Of a stretch of 64,000 nucleotides of DNA, positions 1 to 64,000 are shown piece after piece. Each line of letters opens with the position of its first letter. Position 1 is the first letter of the stretch. Where the stretch lies: NCBI GenBank assembly GCA_051942245.1, contig JAVECL010000008.1, positions 1-64,000 on the forward strand, given 5' to 3'. Below the pieces are notes generated by a model that had not been told where the DNA came from, ran no database searches, and saw only the letters and a list, made by a program, of their open reading frames with translations. A program made the translations under genes and the position numbers. This DNA is from Trypethelium eluteriae. Its lineage: Eukaryota.

Positions 1-1378
1 GCATTCAATAGTACATTACATCTAGTTATCGCAATTTTTAATAGAGTGGTGGTGGAGTAATAATTAATTGAAAGGGTGGAGATTGGAAGGTGGTGCGCCT
101 GCAGGAGGTGGTGGCCTGCAGGAGGTGGGAACCATGGATAACGAATGCCCCACAATTTCTCCTTACTACCCATGAGTGTCGAAAGATTGAAGTCGGAAAT
201 CCAATGGTCACCAGTGCTGCGACAAGGACAACATCACCTGGTTTCTTTGCCTTCAAAGATTTGACTATATCTTGATTCCAATCAATCCGACAATGTCTTG
301 CCTGTTCGCAAAGATCATTGTCATTACCTCGACACCGCGATAGCCTAGATCGACTAATTCCATGGGGTCCGACCCGAGACTGACGCAATGAAATCTGCAA
401 GCTCGAGTATTGGGTCATTCCCAAAACCCATCTACCATCTGTCTTTTCATTCTGTTTGAGTGTATTGTTCGTCTCGGGAGCGTTTGTGTTGATGCCAACG
501 AGCAGTAGCTAGAGCACTAGTTCGAGAAAGTGCAAGTCCACAGTAATGTTTCATGATCTCCGCAACCTCCATTCTTGTCCATTTACTTTTACGTCAATCA
601 TTCGGTCTACCAAAACATTTCCGGCATTGGCTCTTACTGGCTGTCGTTCATACATAAAGAGACAACTTGAACCAACATTTCTTACCACCGCCTAGTTTTA
701 AACTCTTTGACGTGAGCATCCAGCATCAGCCTCAGGTCTATATTGATCAATACAGTGCGTCATCACCCGTAAGTTCCCCATCCAAAAGAATTTAAGGCAG
801 GCCGAACGTGCAAATCAGCGGATTATATGAAGCGGAATCAAAGCTTCAGGCAATGAGTTTTTGAAGCTGCAAATTCCGCGTGGGCGCGAAACAATACCGA
901 GATCTGACACTCGCGCCAATCATGGCCACGCCCTGCGGATATGCAGTGGCTTACGTTCTCCAATCGGTCGAATTACGGCGAATCTTGTCATTGGTCGAAC
1001 ATGCAACGCTAAGCAGTACCATGGCAGCTCTGCAGGATATCCCAAATATTTCACCATCTAGACTCGTCAAGTTATGGTGTACCTACCTATCTAGGTAACT
1101 ACTTAATACCCTTTGCGGAATGGCAACCAGATTTTACATTGATGACACAGCAGCCTATTTATGTTTTTTGCTGTTTTAGCGACCAATCCTTCGACTAACT
1201 GTAACTTTGTGACGTAATTGCATACTCAGACGTCTGTGTATCTTCATATTTCGTATTCTATAGGACCTCCCGACTCTATAAATTAGGACACCCAACCACC
1301 AACCAAGACGACAATTTGCGGCCGACAGATTGTTTCCCCTCTCCCATCCTAGGTTTTAGCACAATCATTCCAGCCAAC

Positions 1379-13950: not shown

Positions 13951-15176
13951 GGTGGCTCCATCATTTGCGCAGACCCTTCGATCTTCCCTGTTTTAGACTC
14001 CGTCTGGTTTAAGTTGTTAAATTTTTGCGATTTTTCCCAATTCCGTCTTCATCCCTTTGCAGAATATCTTGATATAATAGCCAAGCGCGCAAGTCAAGGC
14101 ACCTGCACTACGATGCAGGCTGTAGTGTCTCTACATGCAGACTTGAAGATATTACGCGCATCTGTAACCAAGGAGTCTTTCGTGAAGTACACGGATACAG
14201 TCTCAAAACAACAGAGACGATATACAAATTTCATAGTTGGCACTGCTTGCGCCGGGGGTCTTCATTTTGCCTAATTGATTGATGGGTCAAAACAAACATT
14301 AGAGGATAGACTTCTTAGATCTTCTAAGAATACCGAGTTATCACGTGCTGCTCCTAGAAAATCATATCATGCGATCAGGAGGCTGTAGGCGTGGTATATC
14401 AATTGGTCTGCTTTAGCGGTATCGGTGGAGGGTGAAGTGAGACACTCAGAGTTATAGCGACAATGCTAGTGGACAAACTTGTAGTTTTTAGACATATGAC
14501 ATATGACAACAGTGAGAAGGTACATTGGTTTATTTCAAATGATGCGTACAAGTCAAGCTAGAAAGCAAGCGTTCATACAATACTTCTGCATGTCTCTATC
14601 AAGTTTTCAACATTTCAATGACTCACAGCATACTTTAGGCACTCTGCCCAATGCTTTCCCAGATTAACGATCTCATTCCTATCCTCGATTTTTGAAGCCT
14701 TCACAAAATCAATTCGTACTGCTGAGATTTTCGTCGCAATTTCTCAAGGTCTAATATCGGGGTCTTGCAAGTTTTAAGCAATTCAAAGTTGCGGCAAACT
14801 ACACGCAGTGGCTCTGGAGCACTAAATACGGAACAAATTGACAGATTTCCACGTCAACGAAATGAGAGATCTATTCTTTGTTCTGAGAATGTTATGAGAG
14901 CGCTTGGATTTTTTTGGACTCGACGGTCAATCCATGAGTTAGCTGCGTTGATATAGACAAAAAGAGCCGCCATCAATAGAGAGGTATTGAATATTATACC
15001 TTAAACCCAGAGTCGAGCGCGAGTATTTGTTTGTAGACTGATGATAGATACAAAAAATAAAAACCGAGTGTCAGAAAAAGTTGTGGGCAATGTAATTGAG
15101 GGAGGGTTAAGGCTTAGTGCTTGGAATCAGTTATTACATTATATAATATTTTCTAAATGGTTCGCCATTTAAGTTG

Positions 15177-15302
15177 TCCGAGTTGGTCTAGTGGTCATGA
15201 GTGAGCGCTTCCAACACCCTAATGTATTCATCGCTAATTCGTATAGTTTCCGCTTGTCATTGTCAAGCGCGGGAGACCGGGGTTCGATTCCCCGACTCGG
15301 AG
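15177..15302 (+). tRNA. tRNA-Asp(GTC) with a 46-nt spliceosomal-type intron (15201-15246) and an 8-nt canonical-position intron (15260-15267)
   Basis: Acceptor TCCGAGT/ACTCGGA plus G73. T-arm CGGGG-TTCGATT-CCCCG. Anticodon stem TCCGC/GCGGG with GTC at 15256-15258. The D-stem closes only after 15201-15246 is removed. Confidence 0.9.
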
Positions 15303-15303
15303 G

Positions 15304-15313
15304 TTTTTTTTTT
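15304..15313 (+). terminator. RNA polymerase III oligo(T) terminator of tRNA-Asp
   Basis: T10 run starts 2 nt after the discriminator base. Confidence 0.8.
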
Positions 15314-15594
15314 CTTATTCTTATTTTTACTGCCGCTGTGGTAGGTCGAGTTTAGCTGCGGGGTAAAAGGGGCATTATTTCAGTTTTTACCCAACTGCAG
15401 CAAAAAACACCGAACTATCCTGGTATAACTTTGGACAATTATCAACACACTTAACAATCCAACGCCGTACATGTGTATCTTTCCAGACTCCTTCCACTCT
15501 GCACCAAAGAAGCATCGGTCCAGAGTTAAGTAAAAAAGAAAAATTCTTTCTCTACTTTTACAGAGGGAGGGAAAAGCAAAAAGAAATGGTTGTG

Positions 15595-15778
15595 TAGTCA
15601 CTACGAGGATCGAACTCGCGACCTTCTATAGAATTAGGAGTGCGTTTTTAAGGGATAGTTTGGGAGGAGAATCACCTTGGCGTCACAGTTATTATTAGCA
15701 CCACCTATAAGATGTTAGATTTGCCTAAAGAAAAGATCTCCTGGTACTTACGCTCTAAACCAGCTGAGCTAAGCGACT
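15595..15778 (-). tRNA. tRNA-Ile(AAT) with two spliceosomal-type introns (15705-15751; 15623-15675) and a 9-nt canonical-position intron (15684-15692)
   Basis: Spliced sequence AGTCGCT TA GCTC AGCTGGTTTA GAGC G TGGTG CT AAT AA CGCCA AGGTC GCGAG TTCGATC CTCGT AGTGACT A folds as a standard cloverleaf. A T5 run lies downstream. Confidence 0.88.
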
Positions 15779-17039
15779 GTTGATTCTCTGCAATGGTTTC
15801 ATAAAACACTCTATAGTAAAAATATCTCTCCTCTTTAAGCCTCTTCGCTATCGGGTCAATATTACCAGTTGGAAAACCCCCCCCCCGCCACATTGTACTA
15901 TCAGGCAGTGATATACCTTCACAGTTTGAATTTAGGTGCGGAGTAATAAGGACTGTGTTTTACTTTCTACATAACTCTTATAAAAGATTTACAGCCCCTT
16001 ATTATATAAATCAGGAAATATTTTCTTGAAAGAGTATATTCTTTAGCCGATTTACCAGAACACAGATTACCAGCAAAGGACTTAAAGTCGCGGATAATAA
16101 GGCCGAAAACGGTAGCTGATTCACCGGAACATTGGAGCAGTTGATCAAGTAATAAGGACGCACTTATCTAAAATTTGGTGTCAACAGCATTCTTGTAACT
16201 TATTCATGGTAAATCCAGCTTATTTGATAGAAATAGATAGTAACATCATATGAACGAAGGCTCGACAAGAAATTACGCTTTTAACAGGGAGGTCTAGATA
16301 ACTGTGTCCTTATTCCCTGTTGGGGCACCCCTCCACCGTAAGGTCCCTTGTGTACCGTAGACATGTGACCTGAATCTAATGAATTTTTGGTTGTTTAGGT
16401 AACGTTGTTTCTCTAGGATCGTGAGCAGCTAGTCGTAAAATTTGCGTCGAAGTCGGGCTGGAATGGGTGTATCCAAGGAATACGCCATAATTGCAAGATC
16501 AACAAAAAGACATTCTGGCAGCTTACCTTCGGGTTTTCAATAGACAATCAACGCGGGATAGGAGCCTCGCGATCTCGTTACCAGTCTTGAAGAACAGAAA
16601 TAATGGGTGTTCGCTCAACACCCACCAGAAAACAAATAAAGCCAAAAATCTCTTCTTCCAATCAGAGAAAACATACTCCACAAAACCAAATAGAAAAACT
16701 TCCAATCTCGCTCCATTATATAGGAGTCGTGCATAAGCTACATTATGTGTGCATAACTGCAGGTACAGTATCTCTGGGCCAATTAGCACCGGTTCAGAGA
16801 CCGGGTACACACTATGCTTGCGTGGCATTCCACAATGTCGAACCATACAGCAGTCAATCAGCTTACTCGACGAATCCAAGTCTGCGAGATTCAGCGCAGT
16901 CATGTGCTTTTACGAAGTTGTTGCCTCAGAAAGTTGGTGTTTTGGTAAATCTGCTACCAATTTCGGCCCAACTAGCTGCTGCTTTATGTGCCTCCGCATG
17001 TAGAGTCCAAGTACAGAGCAATGGACACCTTGTTCCATC

Positions 17040-21643: not shown

Positions 21644-22325
21644 TAATGCATTACCTGCTTAGGCTGCCGCGGTGATTGGTATCGAACTGCGGCAGCAGCT
21701 ACATCAGGGCGAAAAACTCTGTTGTTCTACATAGCTACAGCTGACTATTTAATGACCTCGGAAATTAAGGAGATGAAGTCTCTGAGGTGGTCGATACCAA
21801 TTCGGGCAGGGATCTACACCACCAAGGACCTAGAAACATCACCTAGTAGAAAAGGACAAAAGGTGAGTTTTCAGGTTCGACAATTGGCCTTTCATTCAAC
21901 TTATGGAGATGATGGCTAGCCAAAGCCTGGCGCTACAAGCACTGCCACATTCAAAAAGTACAGTCTCGTTTCTCTGGAAACCGATTAGAAAAATAGAGAC
22001 ACCTAATATACGGTAACAGCGAGCCTCGTTATGTGCTTGATAAGCTTGAGCATTGGCATGTCTGTGGCCTGGTCATTTCAGCTGTTTTCGTACAGGTCGA
22101 TGCAATATCCATAAAAACCGTAAGCCGACGTACAGTATAGCAGCTCACTGGTAAAAGGTTCCTCCATATAAAATGGCTATTTCGAGCCTTGTACAAGTAT
22201 GAGCTAGGAGCAAGATTGCTTTCACGTATTTTAATTGCTTTACCACCCTTATTTTCGAGCTACCAACGTCGTTTGCGCCTTTTGGATATTCACAAGCCTC
22301 TCCGCGGATTATCGACTCCAGGAAG

Positions 22326-25300
22326 ATGGGATCATTGAAGGTCAGGGGCCAACTCTCCGATAAGCTGCGTGGAAAACTAGTAGAGAGCAAATTCGATAAA
22401 ACCCCGTACGAATTTGTCCCGCAAGGCGCCTTTGACGACATCTTCTCGAGAGTGTCAATCATGGAAGCGATGAATATTACGCAGTCTAATGATGCGCTGG
22501 TAGATTTCGTCTACACAAGGGCACGGAAGGTCTTTGCTACAATGGCTTACATCGAGCCAAAAAGAAAATTTCTGAAAATGGCTATGTCGTGGTTCTTCAA
22601 GAACAACTTCCACGATAGAAAGCTACCCATCGATAAGTGGTCTGGCAAAAAGTTCCGAGACAACGAAGCGAAAGGCATTCTGCATCCTTTCGCATCAATG
22701 GAAGATACCGTCGAAGACGAAGATGATCGATTCTGGACTACGACCAAGATATACGACTTCCAGGAGGCGCAATTCAAATTCCTCGCGCCTGTGTTCTCGA
22801 CAGATAAGCCCAGTCACGATCTTTGGAACTGCACCATACCTTTCGAGGCGAAGGACGTCACCTATGCCGAGGGCTCGTTCGGCACGGTATCTAAATATAC
22901 GATCCACAGCGATCACGTTCAGGATCCAATGAAATCGGTAAGCCAATCATCGCAAGTGGCCATTTACCGGTCTCCACGCTGACACACTGTAGGACGCTTC
23001 ATATTCCCATGCTTTCGCTGTCAAGGAGCTCAAGGTCGATAATGACCAGGATCGCCAAAAGGTGGCCCGAAATTGGGCGTCTGAGGTGAAGGCCATGGCG
23101 ACGATGAATAAGCTTGACCATAAAGATCACATCGTCCGCTTCATTACCGCCTTTCGTCGCGGCACGCCGGAGGAACCAGAACATTACTTGATCACCGAAT
23201 GGGCGGATGGTGGTAATCTACACGATCTGTGGAAGCAGACACCCAGACCCCAAGAGACGAACTTGAACGTTCAAGAGGTGATCAAGCAACTATTGGGGCT
23301 TGCAGAAGCCTTAAATGCAGCTCACTTTCTGTCCGATGGACGTGCCTACAGTGGTGCATCGTATCGCCATGGGGATCTCAAACCGGCGAACATTCTGTGG
23401 TTTAAGGAGAAAAGCAAATTAGGCACACTCAAGATTTGTGATTGGGGCTGTGCCAAGAACAAAAAAATTGTGACTGCTATGCGCCACAGCAAGACTTCGG
23501 CTGAGTACGGCACTCGACGCTACCAGCCTCCAGAGATTGAGACTGGAATGAGTTCGATGCTTCCGGGATCCCAAGAGAAGCGGATTTCTCGGCTATACGA
23601 TATTTGGTCCATGGGCTGCATCGCTCTCGAATTCATCGTATGGCTTCTTTACGGTATCGATGGACTGGAAATGTTCAATAAAAGTATGAAGGGAGATATG
23701 AGCGACGGCTCACCATTCTATCAATTAAGCTATGTTGGGGGTAGGAAGCTGGCCAGAGTCCACAATATCGCTACATATTGGATGAATCACATGGCCGAAG
23801 ATCCCGCCTGTAGGGTCGGTACTACCGCCCTTGGTGACCTTCTCGAGATCGTCCAGAGAGGTCTTCTGGTTGTAAAACTCCCTCGGAGAGGAGGTACCTT
23901 TGCCGAGAATGGCTTTCAACGACCTTATATAAGCCCTCCTACGGCGCGGCGACACGGACTTGGTAGTGGTGAGATCCATAGCGAGTCAGCGCCCAATTGG
24001 ATGTCGACCACCCAGGGAAGCCCTTCAGCAACCGTCCCAGAGATAGACTTATCCTCAGCAGGGCTACCTGAAGATGATTTGGAACCGCAGTTCGGTATGG
24101 TAGGACCCGAACGACTTCGTGCTGACCAGCTGCGTGACAGGTTGGATCATATTGCGACAGCGGACGAAAAAGAGAGCTACTGGTCTACAAAGCCAGGGCG
24201 ACCGGTCTCTCACATTCCCACACATATATATTCCGATGAATCAGTTCCTGACTCTCTCAGCAGACCTATACAGGACCAGGTAGATTACGACTATCCCAAG
24301 CTTGACCCTCACCACTGGGGATTTGAAACGGATAATAAGCTTGCGACTGAAGTTTTCTCTATCTTAAAAGATAACGACCACTTTCCCATTCCTAGGACCT
24401 GCATAACATCGAATCTTTGCGGTGAATGTACGAGACTCCGTGACGGCTTGTGGGATTTGTTTTTCGAGATCTCCTATGACCTAGACAGCCTTGAGACCAG
24501 GGGCAAAGCTCATAAGTGCGACCTGTGTGGTTTGCTCTGGAGAACATGCGAAAGGAATTGGGGGACAATATTTGACAAAGTTCGGTTTGAGAGATCTGGA
24601 TGCTCGTTGACAATGAATGGCGGACGCCTTCCTGTCCTCTCAATTTTCCGCGATATCGGTAAGTCACACATGACACCTTCAAGGTGTTGATTTGCAAGCA
24701 CAAGCTGACTTCAAGTCTCTAGACTGCAAGAGTCCAGCAACTGCAGATCTTCAGATTGGATTTGCGGAGCTTCCAAAGGCTGGAAGTCCGACGCACCTCG
24801 AAGTAGTTCGCAAGTGGCTCCACGATTGCGACCATCACCACTGTACATCAACATGCAAACCAACCCAGCGAGAAAATAGACTTGCATCCGGTACGTCAAC
24901 ACAATTGCCTACCCGGCTCATTGATGTTGGCATCGATGGCGACCATACGGTCCGCCTTTGGGAGACGAATTCCCAGGATTTCGTTACCCAGGATACTGGA
25001 GGATGGATTTCGTTATCTCATCGATGGGGACTGCGATCTCACCTTTGCACTACATCGGACAACGTTAGAGAGCATCTCACGGGAATGAACCTAGAAGCGC
25101 TACCTGCTACATTTAAGGACGCTGTTCTGGTCACGCGCGCCCTTGGGCGGCGATATCTCTGGATTGACTCAATTTGCATCATTCAAGAGGGAGACCAAGC
25201 CGATTTCGAGCAGGAAAGCAAGTGCATGGAAGATGTCTACAGTGGCGCATATTGTGTCATCGCAGCCACCTGCGCCACTGGTCACAACTCTGGGTTTCTC

Positions 25301-26358
25301 AAGCCACGAAGCAAGAGAGACTATGTCGCCCTTCGCCGCGAAGCTGAGAGCGAAGCGCCGTTCTATGTATGCCAGACAATCGATAGCTTTCAAGAGCACG
25401 TGCTGGAAGACACTTTGAATAGTCGCGGCTGGGTGTTGCAGGAGCATGCACTTGCCCGTCGAACCGTCTTCTTCACGGAGCATCAGACGTACTGGGAATG
25501 TAGCCACGGCGTGCGATGCGAGACTATGACTGAATTACGCAAGTAAGTAGATTCGCGTCATTGGACTTAATGATCCTTTTGAGATAACTGATACCAACAT
25601 TGCATTGTAGTGTGTCGGCGCAACTGCTAGGAGATCCTAACTTCCCCCAGATTCTCGAATCAGCCCCCCAGGGGGAGAGGATCATTCGTTATCAGGAGCT
25701 TTACCAGATCTATTCACGTCTAGGTCTTTCAGACGCTTCAGATCGACCCAGAGCTATCAACGGCCTCGAAAAACGACTGCTGCGCACCATGAACGTGAGA
25801 GGTGGTTTTGGGATATTCGATGCGGGTTCAACTAAAGGACTACTTCGCCGAAGTCTCTTGTGGCATCGGGGATCTGACACACCCAGTTTGACTCGCATCT
25901 CATGGATCACCGTCCCATCATGGTCTTGGATGGCCTACGCAGGTGGGAAAGATACGAATGGGAAAGAATTTCCTGGAGGAATCAACTATTTCCAACTGAG
26001 CTTTAATGGATTCGATTGGGAAGATATTGAATCGCCGTGGTCGCATCCCAAGAATGGCGAGTCAAGCGATAAGCTTATCGCCAAGGTTCGAGAGTTCAAG
26101 CAGAGCGCCGCACGAACACGTGAAGATTATCTCATGTTCGACACTCCTGCAGACACGAATAGAAAGAATGCCAAGTGTATTATCTTAGGGATTCAAAAAG
26201 GCCCGATAGCCTCAAGTGAAAAACGACATTACGTTCTCGTGGTCGTTCCAACGGTCCGTTTCGATGATAAAAACACCAGGATATATGAGAGAGTTGGTGC
26301 AGGATATCTACCTGGAAGATGCTTCACCGACGGTTCTGTGCTGGCCAGCATTCAATAA
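22326..26358 (+). CDS. Protein kinase-HET domain fusion protein (~1281 aa); 4 exons
   Basis: Exons 22326-22937, 22993-24658, 24723-25542 and 25611-26358 join in frame. Kinase motifs EGSFGTV, FAVKEL, HGDLKPANILWF, DWG, YQPPE and DIWSMG. HET motifs LPTRLIDV, LSHRWG, YLWIDSICIIQ, VYSGA and RGWVLQE. Confidence 0.92.
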
Positions 26359-50318: not shown

Positions 50319-50581
50319 TGACCACAACACCCCACTCTGCTCCGTAGGCAGCCTGCTGAGAGCCCTTAAGAAAAGTGATTAGGTTGAAAGAAATGCTCTC
50401 CTTCACCTGCTCTATCTTACAGCAAATCGTCCGCCACATGGAACATCAGTATCCCATCACAACTCCCTATCCGAATCGACTCTCCTCAGCACACCATACG
50501 TAAATGATACCCTGACGCCAAAGACGCTTGTAGCGCCGCGGATTCCCGGAGAAACATAGGCCTCCGGTTTATATCGCGGAG

Positions 50582-53500
50582 ATGCGTCTCCTGGAAATTG
50601 GCAGTCGTGGTGAGGTCAGCCTGACTGAGGATTATCATGACAACGTCCCTCGCTATGCGATACTGTCGCACACTTGGGGACCGGAGGAGGAAGAAGTAAC
50701 TTTCGAAGATTTGATCATGTCCAAAGGCCGGAACAAGGCGGGTTATAAAAAAGTCTCGTTCTGCGCGAAACAAGCCGAAAAGGACGGCCTGCAATATGTA
50801 TGGATCGACGCTTGCTGTATTGATAGGGCGAATCTTACAGAGCTTGCCGAAGCCATCGCTTCGATGTTCCGCTGGTACCATAATGCTACGAAATGCTATG
50901 TATATTTATCGGATGTACCGATCGGCGACTACAACAGTAGGTGTTACCAAGAGACGTGGGACCGAGCCTTCAGACACAGTAGATGGTTCAGACGAGGCTG
51001 GACACTTCAGGAGCTTATTGCTCCGCAATCCGTCCAGTTCTTCTCATCAGAGGGCACACTTCTCGGTGATAAGGAACTGCTCGAGCGACAAATCCATGAG
51101 ATCACACAGATTCCCTTGCAAGCTCTCCGCGGAGCCCCTTTATCTCACTTTAGTGCCGAAGAGCGAATGAACTGGACAATCGGACGCAAGCCTACACGTA
51201 AAGAAGACAGGGCATACTGCTTACAAGGAATATTCGGTGTCTTCATACCTCTCATCTACGGCGAAGGCGAGAATGCATTCAGCCGACTTCGGGGGGAAAT
51301 TAATAGATCGTTAGAAGGTACCATGCGCATTGCCTCTTGGGCTCCCTCACCAACTTGTTACCCTCGGTTTTTTGTCTATTATACTGATGTCCAAGCGTCT
51401 TATAGATGGGAATGCAGAACCAAACTCAAAACGTAGGAGGATTGAATCAAATATCCCGGACGACTACACTTCCTCCCAATCTGCGAAGAATGAATTACTC
51501 GATGCTTTGCGCTTCGACCAAATTGATGATCGCTTTATGAACATCAAGCCCGGTCAGACAAAGACTTGCAGATGGTTACTTCAAACGAAGGAATACCAGG
51601 ACTGGTTGGATACTGATAAGATCTTGGAATGTCACGGGTTCTTCTGGATTAAAGGAAAGCCTGGGTCTGGCAAATCAACATTAACAAAGTTTGCTTTCAT
51701 GAAGATCAAGGAATCCTTTCGCAACACCATTCTCCTATCTTTCTTCTTCAATGCTCGAGGTACCTATCTGGAGAAGACTACCCTAGGGCTATATAGGTCC
51801 TTGCTTGTTCAACTGTTAGAAGAATTTTCCGATGATCAGCGACTTTGGAACGCAACCGGTTTGACGTACCGGTCCTCCGACGATCAACTTAAGGCAAACC
51901 GTGAATCACTCAAGCATTTATTATTACAAGTGGTGCAAAAGTTGGACCAACGAAACATCATGATCATCATTGATGCTCTTGACGAGTGCGATGAGGATGA
52001 AGTGCGGGATATGATTTCATTCTTTGAGAAAGTTGGTGAAGACGCAATTTCTGACAGGAGGAAATTTCACGTCCTATTCTCCAGTCGACATTACCCCCAT
52101 ATAACGATCGCGCGATCAGTTGAAATAAAACTGGAAGATCAACAGGGTCATACCCAGGACATCGACAAATATGTTTCCAAAGAACTCAAGGCTGGACGGG
52201 GCAGGTACGCTGGACAAATCAGGCAAGAAATACGCAACAGAGCCTCGGGGATCTTTATGTGGGTTGTTCTAGTCGTGCATATTCTCAATAAAGCCTTCGA
52301 CCGTGGCCAAGTCCACGCTCTACAAAAAAAGCTTCGAGAGATACCGACTGATCTGAACGAACTTTTCCGGAGCATTTTGACTCGCGATTGTGAAAACTTA
52401 AACGAAATGAAGCTTTGCCTTCAATGGATTCTATGCGCTATTCGACCTCTGAAGCGAGAGGAACTTTACTTCGCAATATTATCTGGGATAGCATCCGAGG
52501 AATCTTTCCTTTGGGATCAGGACGCAATCTCCGTGGAAATGATGAATTTATTCATCCTTAGCTCCTCGAAGAGTTTGGCGGAAATTACAAAGTCAAAGGA
52601 TCATACTGTGCAGTTCATTCATGAATCTGTGCGAGACTTCCTCCTTAAAAAGGATGGACTTGCCCAAGTCTGGACTGATCTAAAGTCTAATCCAATCGGC
52701 CTAAGTCACGATAGCTTGAAAGAATCCTGCTACAACTACATGAGATCTGACATACCTCATCATCTGATTGTTCCAGAGCCACTTCCGGTAGCAAACTCTC
52801 CTCCCGCAGCCGAACTCCGCAGAGACGCATCACACAAATTTCCGTTTCTAAAATATGCAGTTCATCACATTTTTGCTCATGCTGATACTGCAGGTGCTAA
52901 AGGAGTCAGTCAAGAAGACTTCATGAAAGATTTTAAGCTTAATGAATGGATCCAGCTGAATAATATAATCGAAAGGCATGAGATCAGACGTCTAACCCCC
53001 AGACATAGATCTGATGTACATACTTGCTGAAAAGGACTGTTCCGATCTCATTAACATGCTGTTCTACGATACACCCCGTATACACTCTCCGAGGGCAAGA
53101 TACGGCAATCCCATATTTGCTGCTCTTGCGAACGGTAGCCACCAAGCCTTCGAAGTGCTCACCAAGCGAGATAGACAATTACATCCGAGTGGCTGCGAGT
53201 TTCCTTATCCGTGTAGCAACATTCATTCATTCTTAACCAGCCTACGGAAACCAACACTCTTATATCAATTTTTAGTCGTCTATAATATAGACCTGACTTG
53301 GCAATCCAAGGGCGGCCAGACACTACTTTCATGGGCTATGGAGGCTGGCTACGAGGAGATTGCCGAGTTACTCATTAACAAGAGCTCCTTAGCCGATGCG
53401 CGATCCCAAACTTTTAGCGATACCCTGTTCGCCGCACCGTCATGTGGTAACACTCGTATCATTACGCTATTGCTAGATAAGGGTACTGATGTCAATGCGC

Positions 53501-54858
53501 GAACTAGAATGAATGGCAAGACGCCGCTGTATGCGGCATCGGTACGGGATATTGAGAAGGCCGTGAAGCTATTACTAGAAAGGGGTGCTGATGTCAACAA
53601 ACAATGCGGACCTGATGGTACCGCGCTATATGCTGCCTCTTCGAGAGGTCACGCGAGAATAGTTGAGCTACTGCTGGACAATGGTGCCTATATCGACGCG
53701 CAAATCGAATTCGTCAATCACGTAACTCCGCTATATTCTGCATCTTCACAGGGTTATGAGAATATCACAAAACTGTTGCTGGATAGAGGTGCCGATGTCA
53801 ACATACAATGCGGAACTGATGGCACCGCGCTGAATGCTGCATTTGTGCGAGGTCATCAGGTGATCGTTAAGCTGTTGCTAGATTCGGCCGCCGATATCTA
53901 TACACGAGGAGCAGAATATGGGAATGGGCTCCCGGTGGCAATTGTGTATGGTCGCAGTGAGGCCGTCGAAGTCTTGCTACGCAGTGCAGCAAATGGTACA
54001 TTGCAGAGTTCAGAGTGTAGTATTGCGCTGCAGCTAGCCTCGGCACAAGGGTCCCTTGAAGTTGCGAGGCAAATACTATTCGGGAATTCGGGGCGATATA
54101 CCCTCGCTAATGCGCTGAAAAATCGCCAGTCTCTTTCCATTAAACCTTCGTTGGAAACGTACGAGGAGATTATCAAGATTCTGCTAGGTAGGGGCGCCGG
54201 CATCAGCTTCCAGATAGAGTCTGGTAGCTTCCTCAATAAATATCGCGATCAGATCACGAAACTGCTGCACAAAATCAGAGCTGAAGTTGATACGGGGAGC
54301 GGAGGCAGAGAAAGGGATGACGAGTCGCAGACTGCTATTGCGAGAGGTAACGAAAGTAGTACCTCGGAGTACATGTCACCAGACAACAGCATAGACGTTG
54401 ATAAACGAGACTGGACAGGTAATGCTACCGACAATCATGCCCTTCAAGATTATCAGATGCATTTGTCGCGCCTCGAGTTACGGAACAAGAAGCAGATGGT
54501 GAGCTGGACCCTCGAATCGCTACTATATAGTGGAATTGATGTGAATGCAGAAGGCGGAAAATTTGGCAATGCGCTGCAGGTGGCATCTTTGATGGGTAAA
54601 GAGGATTGTGTTCGGCTGTTACTTGATCAAGGTGCCCTTGTCAATGCGAACGGCGGAATTTGCGGTACTGCGCTACAAGCAGCATCATTGGCAGGCCGTG
54701 CGGATGTCGTCCAGATGTTACTCGATAGAGGTGCTAACGTTTATGCAAAAGGAGGAATATGTGGTAGCGCGCTGGAGGCCGCGTTGTTTGTTCGGGCCTC
54801 TAAGACACAATTTTCTTGGGTCTGCTCGTTGCAAGAATCTCGGTCCACCGCTCTATGA
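50582..54858 (+). CDS. Fungal NLR, HET-NACHT-ankyrin architecture, with an apparent +1 frameshift at 52996-53000
   Basis: HET: MRLL..YAILSHTWG..WIDACCID..RGWTLQELIAP. Intron 51318-51405. NACHT: WIKGKPGSGKST, IIIDALDEC, GIFMWV, FIHESVRDF. Ankyrin repeats (GTALYAAS.RGH..IV.LLLD.GA) follow in a different frame. Confidence 0.9.
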
Positions 54859-63183: not shown

Positions 63184-64000
63184 TCAAGCGATATCAAGAC
63201 TCTCTAGTTTCCAGTCATTCAATGCTTTCATCGAAGAAAGTGTAAGGTGATGACTGGGACCTAGTATCTGCGTTCGTAGCTGAACACACTTGTTCATAAG
63301 CTTGACTGCCTCCTCGTTATGACCTTGTCCTTTCCATATGATGGCCAGAGTACTCATGCTGATCAGTGTATCAGGATGCTCTTCGCCAAGTACTTTCTTC
63401 CTCGTCTCCATCGCTATCACCCCCAGCTCCTCCGCCTCTTTCCATCGGCCTTGACCCCTGTACGTTAACGCCAGGCTGGCTATACTAATCAGTGTATTAG
63501 GATGCTCTAAGCCGAGCTTGGTCTTACGAGCTTGCATTACCTCCACGTCCAGCGCTTCTGCGTCCTGCCACCGGTCGAGCTTCCTATACGTCGATGCCAG
63601 ATCGGTCATGCTCTCCAGAGTATCGGGATGCTCTTTGCCAAGCGTCCTTTTCGTCATCTCCACTACGCGGAATGCCAGATCTTCCGCCTCCTGCAGCCGA
63701 CCTTGACTGCTATATATCAACCCCAACCAGCTCATTTTTCTGAGCGTTGCAAGATGATCCGTGCCAAGCACTCGTGAACTTGCATCTACCACTCGCATGG
63801 TTATTTCTTCAGCCTCGTTCCATCGGCCTTGATGCATGTACGCTTTCGCCACCATTGCCATACTTTCGAGTGTGTCTGGATGCTCCTTACCAAGTACCTT
63901 TATTCTTATCTCCATTACTTGTGTGTCGAGCTTTTCAGCGTCATTGCATCGACCTTGCTCCTTATACGCCCAAGCTAGGTCAAACATGCTGATCAGGGTA
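63184..64000 (-). CDS. C-terminal 42-aa TPR repeat array (kinesin-light-chain type), probably from an NB-ARC/NACHT-TPR NLR; 5' part lies outside the window
   Basis: Repeated LG.EHPDTL.SM..LA..Y..QGRW.EAE.L units. Confidence 0.85.
   Translation of the reverse strand, partial: TLISMFDLAWAYKEQGRCNDAEKLDTQVMEIRIKVLGKEHPDTLESMAMVAKAYMHQGRWNEAEEITMRVVDASSRVLGTDHLATLRKMSWLGLIYSSQGRLQEAEDLAFRVVEMTKRTLGKEHPDTLESMTDLASTYRKLDRWQDAEALDVEVMQARKTKLGLEHPNTLISIASLALTYRGQGRWKEAEELGVIAMETRKKVLGEEHPDTLISMSTLAIIWKGQGHNEEAVKLMNKCVQLRTQILGPSHHLTLSSMKALNDWKLESLDIA

Follow-up and report, generated by a model that had tools for sequence, protein, structure and literature searches.

A candidate spliceosomal intron in the D arm of a fungal-type tRNA-Asp(GTC) gene

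A motif-based scan of both strands of the window, by which is meant the whole 64-kb stretch of DNA that was analysed, finds only two tRNA-like genes. One of them encodes tRNA-Asp(GTC) and the other, its neighbour on the opposite strand, tRNA-Ile(AAT). Both are split by inserts that begin with GT and end with AG (Table 1). Standard tools pass over the locus: ARAGORN in its default mode returns no tRNA anywhere in the 64-kb window, and neither does Rfam at its gathering threshold. When Rfam is run in E-value mode on the unspliced sequence, a partial match to RF00005 is obtained at 15233-15294; its 23.8 bits fall short of the gathering score, which is 29. Other weak Rfam matches near the locus (DdR16, RAGATH-30, mascRNA and others) lie far below their gathering scores and were taken as chance.

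The A box, the B box and the T-run terminator of the tRNA-Asp gene are all intact, and the TATA-like sequence upstream is a putative promoter element. The acceptor stem is formed by TCCGAGT (15177-15183) and ACTCGGA (15295-15301). The gene is interrupted at two places. The first interruption is an insert of 46 nt with A24 on its left and U25 on its right, a position that sets it apart from canonical tRNA introns, which lie at 37/38. The second is an 8-nt intron at exactly that canonical site. In the DNA the anticodon region reads TTGTCA-TTGTCAAG-C-GCGGG, with the GTC loop split after position 37, and the purine at position -3 of this short intron can pair with U32.

The 46 bases quoted in the preliminary description of this DNA, together with the signals GTGAGC, GCTAAT and TAG named there, are present exactly, and they lie between tRNA positions 24 (15200) and 25 (15247) as it had stated. 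The donor fits the GTRAG pattern of U2-type GT-AG introns. In fungi, the extended donor consensus is GTRAGY. Two copies of CTAAT, both of the CTRAY type, are found a short distance before the 3' end, and the 3' end itself is of the YAG type. The frequency of such a combination was estimated from 2,000,000 random 46-mers with the base composition of the window. A GT start together with an AG end occurs in 4.0e-3 of them; with a purine at +3, YAG at the end and CTRAY 5-35 nt from the end, the fraction falls to 9.7e-5; and with AG at +4/+5, which completes the full set of GTRAG, CTRAY and YAG, it is 6e-6. The insert is a real observation and far from chance. Two other classes of element were considered. 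A group I or group II self-splicing intron is ruled out by size alone, given what is established about these introns and a length of 46 nt. A repeated, introner-like element would be expected in many near-identical copies across the genome, and no further copy of any of the three GT-AG inserts of the window is found within its 64 kb.

Excision at the GT-AG ends is the sole cut that restores the Asp cloverleaf: in a boundary-shift test, zero is the only equivalent shift. The D-stem pairs G10-U25, U11-A24 and C12-G23 are recovered in this way, as is the spacing to the anticodon stem, in agreement with the earlier account. Its assignment of the gene to tRNA-Asp(GTC) also holds, with one correction: removal of the 46 nt does not suffice. 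When the 46-nt insert alone is taken out, ARAGORN mis-models the product as Asn(att), and when the 8-nt intron alone is taken out, it reports Gly(tcc) with a long variable arm. Since either single removal gives the wrong tRNA, Asp(GTC) needs the removal of both inserts. Once both are removed in silico, ARAGORN returns a 72-nt tRNA-Asp(gtc) cloverleaf, in which the acceptor stem has 7 bp and the anticodon and T stems 5 bp each, and the variable loop is the 4-nt AGAC. The predicted spliced junctions read GGTCATGA/TTTCCGC at 24/25 and TTGTCA/CGCGGG at 37/38. The 8-nt canonical intron and the adjacent tRNA-Ile gene had both been overlooked in the preliminary description.

A different gene model is reported by ARAGORN when introns are allowed, in which 15212-15260 is the single, 49-nt intron of a tRNA-Thr(TGT). 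The potential of GCGCT (15205-15209) to pair with AGCGC (15265-15269) is in its favour, but in the resulting molecule the D stem is 2 bp long, the variable loop measures 7 nt, position 37 is a C and the intron is away from the usual site, and the GCGCT segment is missing in five of the six related genes described below (L006 has it). This model is extremely improbable. Single-intron calls of this kind were set aside as artefacts: the six unspliced orthologues give Gly, Ser, Leu, none, Lys and Thr, despite near-identical exons.

The tRNA-Ile(AAT) gene contains three inserts, two of the GT-AG type and one at the canonical 37/38 site. After removal of the two GT-AG inserts, ARAGORN recognises Ile(aat) with a 9-nt canonical intron, and after removal of all three it returns a 75-nt cloverleaf. 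Judged from its sequence, this gene would need the same double treatment as tRNA-Asp, namely removal of its canonical intron and of both GT-AG inserts. Of the three GT-AG inserts in the window, the one in the variable loop makes the weakest case. Its position +5 is not a G, its 3' end is AAG, with a competing TAG 3 nt upstream, and the GT-AG cut is one of six equivalent boundaries.

Table 1. Features of the split tRNA genes, other features of the window, and the D-region inserts of related tRNA-Asp genes from metagenomes
Feature	Window position	Strand	tRNA position	Sequence or remark	Basis
TATA-like element	15140-15147	+		TATATAAT; 30-37 nt upstream of tRNA-Asp	sequence read
tRNA-Asp(GTC) gene	15177-15302	+
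Asp exon 1	15177-15200	+	1-24	5' acceptor strand, D-stem 5' strand, D-loop, U22-A24
Asp A box	15184-15194	+		TGGTCTAGTGG; within exon 1
Asp insert, 46 nt	15201-15246	+	24/25		sequence read
Donor of Asp insert	15201-15206	+		GTGAGC	sequence read
CTAAT, first copy	15219-15223	+		branch A 24 nt from 3' end
Branch-type sequence	15233-15238	+		GCTAAT	sequence read
CTAAT, second copy	15234-15238	+		branch A 9 nt from 3' end
Acceptor of Asp insert	15244-15246	+		TAG	sequence read
Asp exon 2	15247-15259	+	25-37	anticodon GTC at 15256-15258
Asp canonical intron, 8 nt	15260-15267	+	37/38	TTGTCAAG	ARAGORN after in-silico removal
Asp exon 3	15268-15302	+	38-73	B box within; discriminator G at 15302
Asp B box	15281-15291	+		GGTTCGATTCC; sole perfect GGTTCRANYCC match in window
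T10 run	15304-15313	+		Pol III terminator-like	sequence read
tRNA-Ile(AAT) gene	15778-15595	-		three inserts; missed by default ARAGORN and Rfam
Ile exon 1	15752-15778	-	1-25	A box TAGCTCAGCTGG	motif scan, ARAGORN
Ile insert 1, 47 nt	15705-15751	-	25/26	after D stem; GTAAGT...CTAAC...TATAG
Ile exon 2	15693-15704	-	26-37	anticodon AAT	ARAGORN
Ile canonical intron, 9 nt	15684-15692	-	37/38		ARAGORN once two GT-AG inserts removed
Ile exon 3, 8 nt	15676-15683	-	38-45		ARAGORN
Ile insert 2, 53 nt	15623-15675	-	45/46	variable loop; GTGATT...CTAAT...GAAG
Ile exon 4	15595-15622	-	46-73	then TTTCTTTTT 10 nt downstream
Kinase-HET gene	22203-26358	+		three short introns
Kinase/HET intron, 55 nt	22938-22992
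Kinase/HET intron, 64 nt	24659-24722
Kinase/HET intron, 68 nt	25543-25610
AT-rich block	~35.5-50 kb
HET gene, then NACHT-ankyrin gene	50534-54858	+
TPR_10 repeat gene	63184-63999	-
L001, D-region insert			24/25	same site as window; GTAAGT...CTAAC...TAG
L009, D-region insert			25/26	GTGAGT...CTAAC...CAG
L026, D-region insert			25/26	GTGAGG...CTAAC...TAG
L006, D-region insert			27/28	GTAAGC...CTAAC...CAG
L008, D-region insert			27/28	GTGAGT...CTAAT...CAG
L042, D-region insert			27/28	GTAAGT...CTAAC...TAG

Ordinary mRNA introns are found in the same window. The three introns of the kinase/HET gene lie at the junctions of consecutive open reading frames, and arithmetic on the ORF coordinates indicates that each of them restores the reading frame. 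They run from GTAAGC or GTAAGT through CTGAC or CTGAT to YAG, and the Asp insert bears the same kinds of signal, which bears out the earlier description of it as spliceosomal in type. These are the only three mRNA introns verified in the window, and the insert is shorter than any of them (46 nt versus 55, 64 and 68 nt).

The remaining content of the window was surveyed by Pfam, which identifies HET domains, an NPHP3_N/NACHT protein followed by ankyrin repeats, and TPR_10 repeats. Such a combination of HET, NACHT-ankyrin and TPR_10 genes is typical of fungal non-self-recognition (NLR-like) loci. The AT-rich block has a G+C content of 30% (19-46% in 500-nt steps), a TpA/ApT ratio of 1.33 and a (CpA+TpG)/(ApC+GpT) ratio of 0.87, values like those of repeat-induced point mutation (RIP), and its AT skew switches near 44 kb. 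The block probably holds decayed repeats. HET-type genes and RIP-like indices point to a filamentous ascomycete.

The same locus is present in DNA of a second isolate (run X1), on a contig of 13.4 kb that differs from the window over 15100-15807 by five substitutions and no indel. As the insert recurs there without any indel, it is not an assembly artefact. All five substitutions fall in flanks and inserts, and none in exons. One of them, C to T at 15218, lies in the Asp insert beside the first CTAAT. Another, T to C at 15749 on the plus strand, turns the donor of the first Ile insert, GTAAGT, into GTGAGT, which likewise fits the consensus.

Related genes were sought in metagenomes with the pattern TGGTNANGA-N45-75-GCYTGTCA-N10-40-GGGTTCGANTCC, which requires an insert but does not require GT, AG or a branch sequence. 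It matched 52 loci, a number that is not a frequency of the split arrangement, as the pattern recovers insert-bearing genes only. Six of the loci are fungal-type tRNA-Asp genes with an insert in the D-arm/anticodon-stem region, while 43 others mostly look like uninterrupted, largely bacterial-type tRNA-Asp genes with a chance TGGTNANGA upstream. The loci L013, L039 and L041 are tRNA-Asp-like and have long inserts in the anticodon-stem region without GT-AG boundaries; L041 contains ACTAAC. They probably belong to other lineages.

The D-region inserts of the six relatives are located at three neighbouring sites, 24/25, 25/26 and 27/28. GTRAG and YAG are found in every one of the six, as is CTRAY, which stands 10-14 nt before the end. 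Each relative also has an insert at the canonical 37/38 site, of 4-26 nt, with a purine at -3 and an end in RAG or GCG before C38. When the inserts are removed, ARAGORN identifies all seven genes (the window gene and the six relatives) as Asp(gtc) of 72 nt. The preliminary description had called the spliced gene collinear with eukaryotic tRNA-Asp, and this is confirmed by the fungal-type relatives. L006, L008 and L042 have TGATTT contiguous, which is the junction predicted for the window gene, and the window gene has TTTCCGC contiguous where those three are split. As each is contiguous where the other is split, the window gene and the 27/28 genes confirm each other's exon junctions. An own scan of the relative loci, which are about 1.3 kb long, found no further tRNA gene beside Asp.

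L042 has an additional insert of 56 nt (GTGAGT...CTAAC...CAG) in its acceptor stem, on the minus strand and some 70 nt upstream of the A box. The first exon of this gene is only 5 nt long (TCCTC), which raises the question of where transcription starts. With this insert included, the relatives contribute seven GT-AG inserts of 49-61 nt and the window three. GTRAG is present in nine of these ten, YAG in nine and CTRAY in all ten, the exception to YAG being the variable-loop insert of tRNA-Ile. The branch A lies 9-14 nt from the 3' end in every one of them, and 9 nt from it in the Asp insert of the window. In L009 and L026, there are only 4 nt (TGCG) at 37/38 and a C-A mismatch at pair 4-68; either the intron is unusually short in these two genes or their anticodon arm has been drawn wrongly.

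A likeness between the window gene and L006 may be added here. The Asp insert begins GTGAGCGCT and the 27/28 insert of L006 begins GTAAGCGCT. In the window, AGCGCT (15205-15210) can pair with AAGCGC (15265-15270), at the 3' end of the canonical intron. The shared AGCGCT could be due to chance, it could be the trace of a common origin followed by a 3-nt slide, or it could reflect a helix in the precursor.

Could the locus be a dead pseudogene, broken by the chance insertion of something intron-like? The failure of standard tools to find a tRNA here would agree with this. However, three GT-AG inserts in two adjacent genes and seven more in the relatives all have splice signals at boundaries that restore a tRNA, and the promoter boxes and the terminator are intact. 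The pattern of divergence points the same way. The mature Asp sequences of the seven genes are identical at 60-72 of 72 positions in pairwise comparison (83-99% apart from the pair L009/L026), whereas the D-region inserts are 48-68% identical between genes, and 53-68% where they occupy the same site. In the near-identical pair L009/L026, the figures are 100% for the mature sequence and 94% for the insert. The difference between exons and inserts was assessed by Fisher's test, with p = 3.7e-4 for the window gene against L001, p = 3.9e-7 for L008 against L042, and p = 4.7e-10 for L006 against L008.

The exon changes sit in stems and are mostly two-sided and compensatory, at pairs 3-69, 5-67, 6-66 and 7-65 of the acceptor stem, 29-41 of the anticodon stem and 49-63 of the T stem. 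Non-pairs among the seven genes are limited to the invariant U13-U22 and to C-A at 4-68 in L009 and L026. The D-stem pairs that the insert interrupts are invariant in all seven genes and are thus uninformative. Constrained exons together with diverged inserts are the pattern of a working gene, and a pseudogene that had decayed since the insertion would look different. The pseudogene explanation is therefore distinctly unlikely.

Removal of the insert by a non-spliceosomal route, for example by the tRNA-splicing endonuclease acting on an ectopic bulge-helix-bulge (BHB)-like structure, has precedents. In a red alga and in archaea, according to the passages concerned, the endonuclease cuts tRNA introns that are ectopic or multiple (PMC3728597, PMC4033280). 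At the locus studied here, a BHB motif (two 3-nt bulges and a 4-bp helix) was looked for in both orientations and at every equivalent boundary, and none was found: the central helix reaches at most three of four pairs, and neither the outer nor the inner helix is well formed. Nor are the precursor folds unusually stable, with z = -1.84 for Asp and +1.13 for Ile. GTRAG, CTRAY and YAG are kept in inserts that have otherwise diverged, while the endonuclease route needs none of these signals. Such a route is very improbable for the 46-nt insert.

A further possibility is that the intron is a true spliceosomal one but that RNA polymerase II makes the transcript. The tRNA would then have a dedicated Pol II transcript or be part of a longer precursor, and RNase P and RNase Z would free it after splicing. 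The spliceosome normally acts on Pol II transcripts, and several of the genes have TATA-like elements upstream. The acceptor-stem insert of L042 can be read in the same direction, as the first 5 nt of that tRNA lie 56 nt upstream of the rest and about 60 nt from the A box. A distance of about 60 nt is far for the usual start of Pol III transcription guided by the A box, which is awkward for L042. Against a Pol II origin, both internal boxes are intact, and the genes have T runs close behind them (T10 in the window; T6, T7 or T4-5 in L001, L009, L026 and L042). None of the ten GT-AG inserts contains a run of five or more T, which fits read-through by Pol III. No long open reading frame or obvious host gene is found across 14300-16500. 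Finally, U6 is a Pol III transcript that is spliced, as passages of PMC5855946 attest. A Pol II origin of the tRNA is unlikely.

The explanation that accounts best for these observations is that 15201-15246 is a spliceosomal U2-type GT-AG intron in a working nuclear tRNA-Asp(GTC) gene transcribed by Pol III, and on the sequence data this is fairly probable. Because the inserts carry all the signals of ordinary mRNA introns, the Asp and Ile tRNAs probably need the mRNA splicing machinery to mature. For tRNA-Asp, maturation might proceed as follows. RNA polymerase III would transcribe the gene as far as the T10 run, directed by an internal promoter whose A box lies in exon 1 and whose B box lies in exon 3. 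The spliceosome would recognise GUGAGC, the CUAAU branch site and UAG; the 46 nt would leave as a lariat, and A24 would be joined to U25, completing the junction of D stem and anticodon stem. Removal of the 8 nt at 37/38, which form a separate intron, would fall to the tRNA-splicing endonuclease and ligase. Trimming of the ends and addition of CCA would come last.

Several points speak against a spliceosomal intron. Firstly, 46 nt is short beside the 55-68 nt of the mRNA introns, and the nearest branch A is only 9 nt from the end. Secondly, the signals of the Ile variable-loop insert are weak. Thirdly, L009 and L026 combine the C-A mismatch with a canonical-site insert of 4 nt. Lastly, the textbook view, given in the relevant part of a 2026 review (PMC13149111), is that tRNA splicing takes place without the spliceosome, with tRNA introns removed by protein enzymes.

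Spliceosomal introns are known from other non-coding RNA genes of fungi. Passages of PMC5855946 describe them in genes for U6, which is a Pol III transcript, in U1, U2 and U5 snRNA genes, and in ascomycete rDNA, and they put forward reverse splicing as the origin of spliceosomal introns in ncRNA genes. The U6 introns, found in Schizosaccharomyces pombe and others, are credited there to Tani and Ohshima (1989, 1991) and Canzler et al. (2016), and the rDNA introns to Bhattacharya et al. (2000). Introns of this class also occur in fungal U3 genes, according to the part of PMC5832005 concerned.

Like the introns of fungal U6, the Asp insert is a short GT-AG element with a branch site in a small, structured, Pol III-transcribed ncRNA gene of an ascomycete, and in both cases the insertions are lineage-specific and occupy several positions. 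The host differs, as a tRNA is not a component of the spliceosome, and for this reason proximity to the catalytic centre cannot explain insertion into a tRNA. Unlike U6, tRNA-Asp also contains an endonuclease-type intron, and two splicing systems would act on one RNA. With the introns of rDNA, U1, U2, U5 and U3, the insert shares the form of a normal-looking spliceosomal intron in an ascomycete ncRNA gene, recognised largely from its sequence signals. The host genes and the polymerases (Pol I or Pol II) are different there, and the passages in question make no mention of tRNA genes.

The insert resembles canonical 37/38 tRNA introns in that it splits a nuclear tRNA gene and has to be taken out before the tRNA can function, and the Asp gene has one of these introns too. 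The D-arm insert differs from them in having GT, branch and AG signals, which the endonuclease ignores, and in lacking the structure that this enzyme reads. A resemblance to the introns of Cyanidioschyzon merolae and archaea can also be seen, since those accounts (PMC3728597, PMC4033280), in the parts concerned, report several introns per gene and non-canonical sites that include the D arm. The introns described there are defined by the bulge-helix-bulge, which is absent here, and have neither a GT-AG nor a branch consensus. In the full-text literature searched, which does not extend to subscription journals, no tRNA gene with a spliceosomal intron was found to be reported.

The relatives suggest a wider reading, towards which the sequences incline only slightly: the spliceosome may have a routine part in tRNA maturation across a broad group of filamentous ascomycetes, whose Pol III precursors would contain, beside the canonical intron, between one and three of mRNA type. 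The intron sites would then be the hinge of D stem and anticodon stem at 24/25, 25/26 and 27/28, the variable loop and, in one relative with a 5-nt first exon, the acceptor stem. The presence of introns at differing sites of the same tRNA would indicate that they have slid or been gained repeatedly, the simplest route being reverse splicing into abundant tRNAs. If such a routine role exists, the tRNA gene sets of fungi are under-counted, because standard tRNA finders miss split genes.

A spliceosomal intron in tRNA-Asp, if confirmed, would give the spliceosome a second natural Pol III substrate besides U6. Because the same tRNA carries introns at three neighbouring positions in different lineages, these genes would provide a clean system for the entry of spliceosomal introns into structured RNAs. 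It would also explain tRNA genes that are apparently missing from fungal annotations. For the organism itself, translation capacity would be tied to the activity of the spliceosome.
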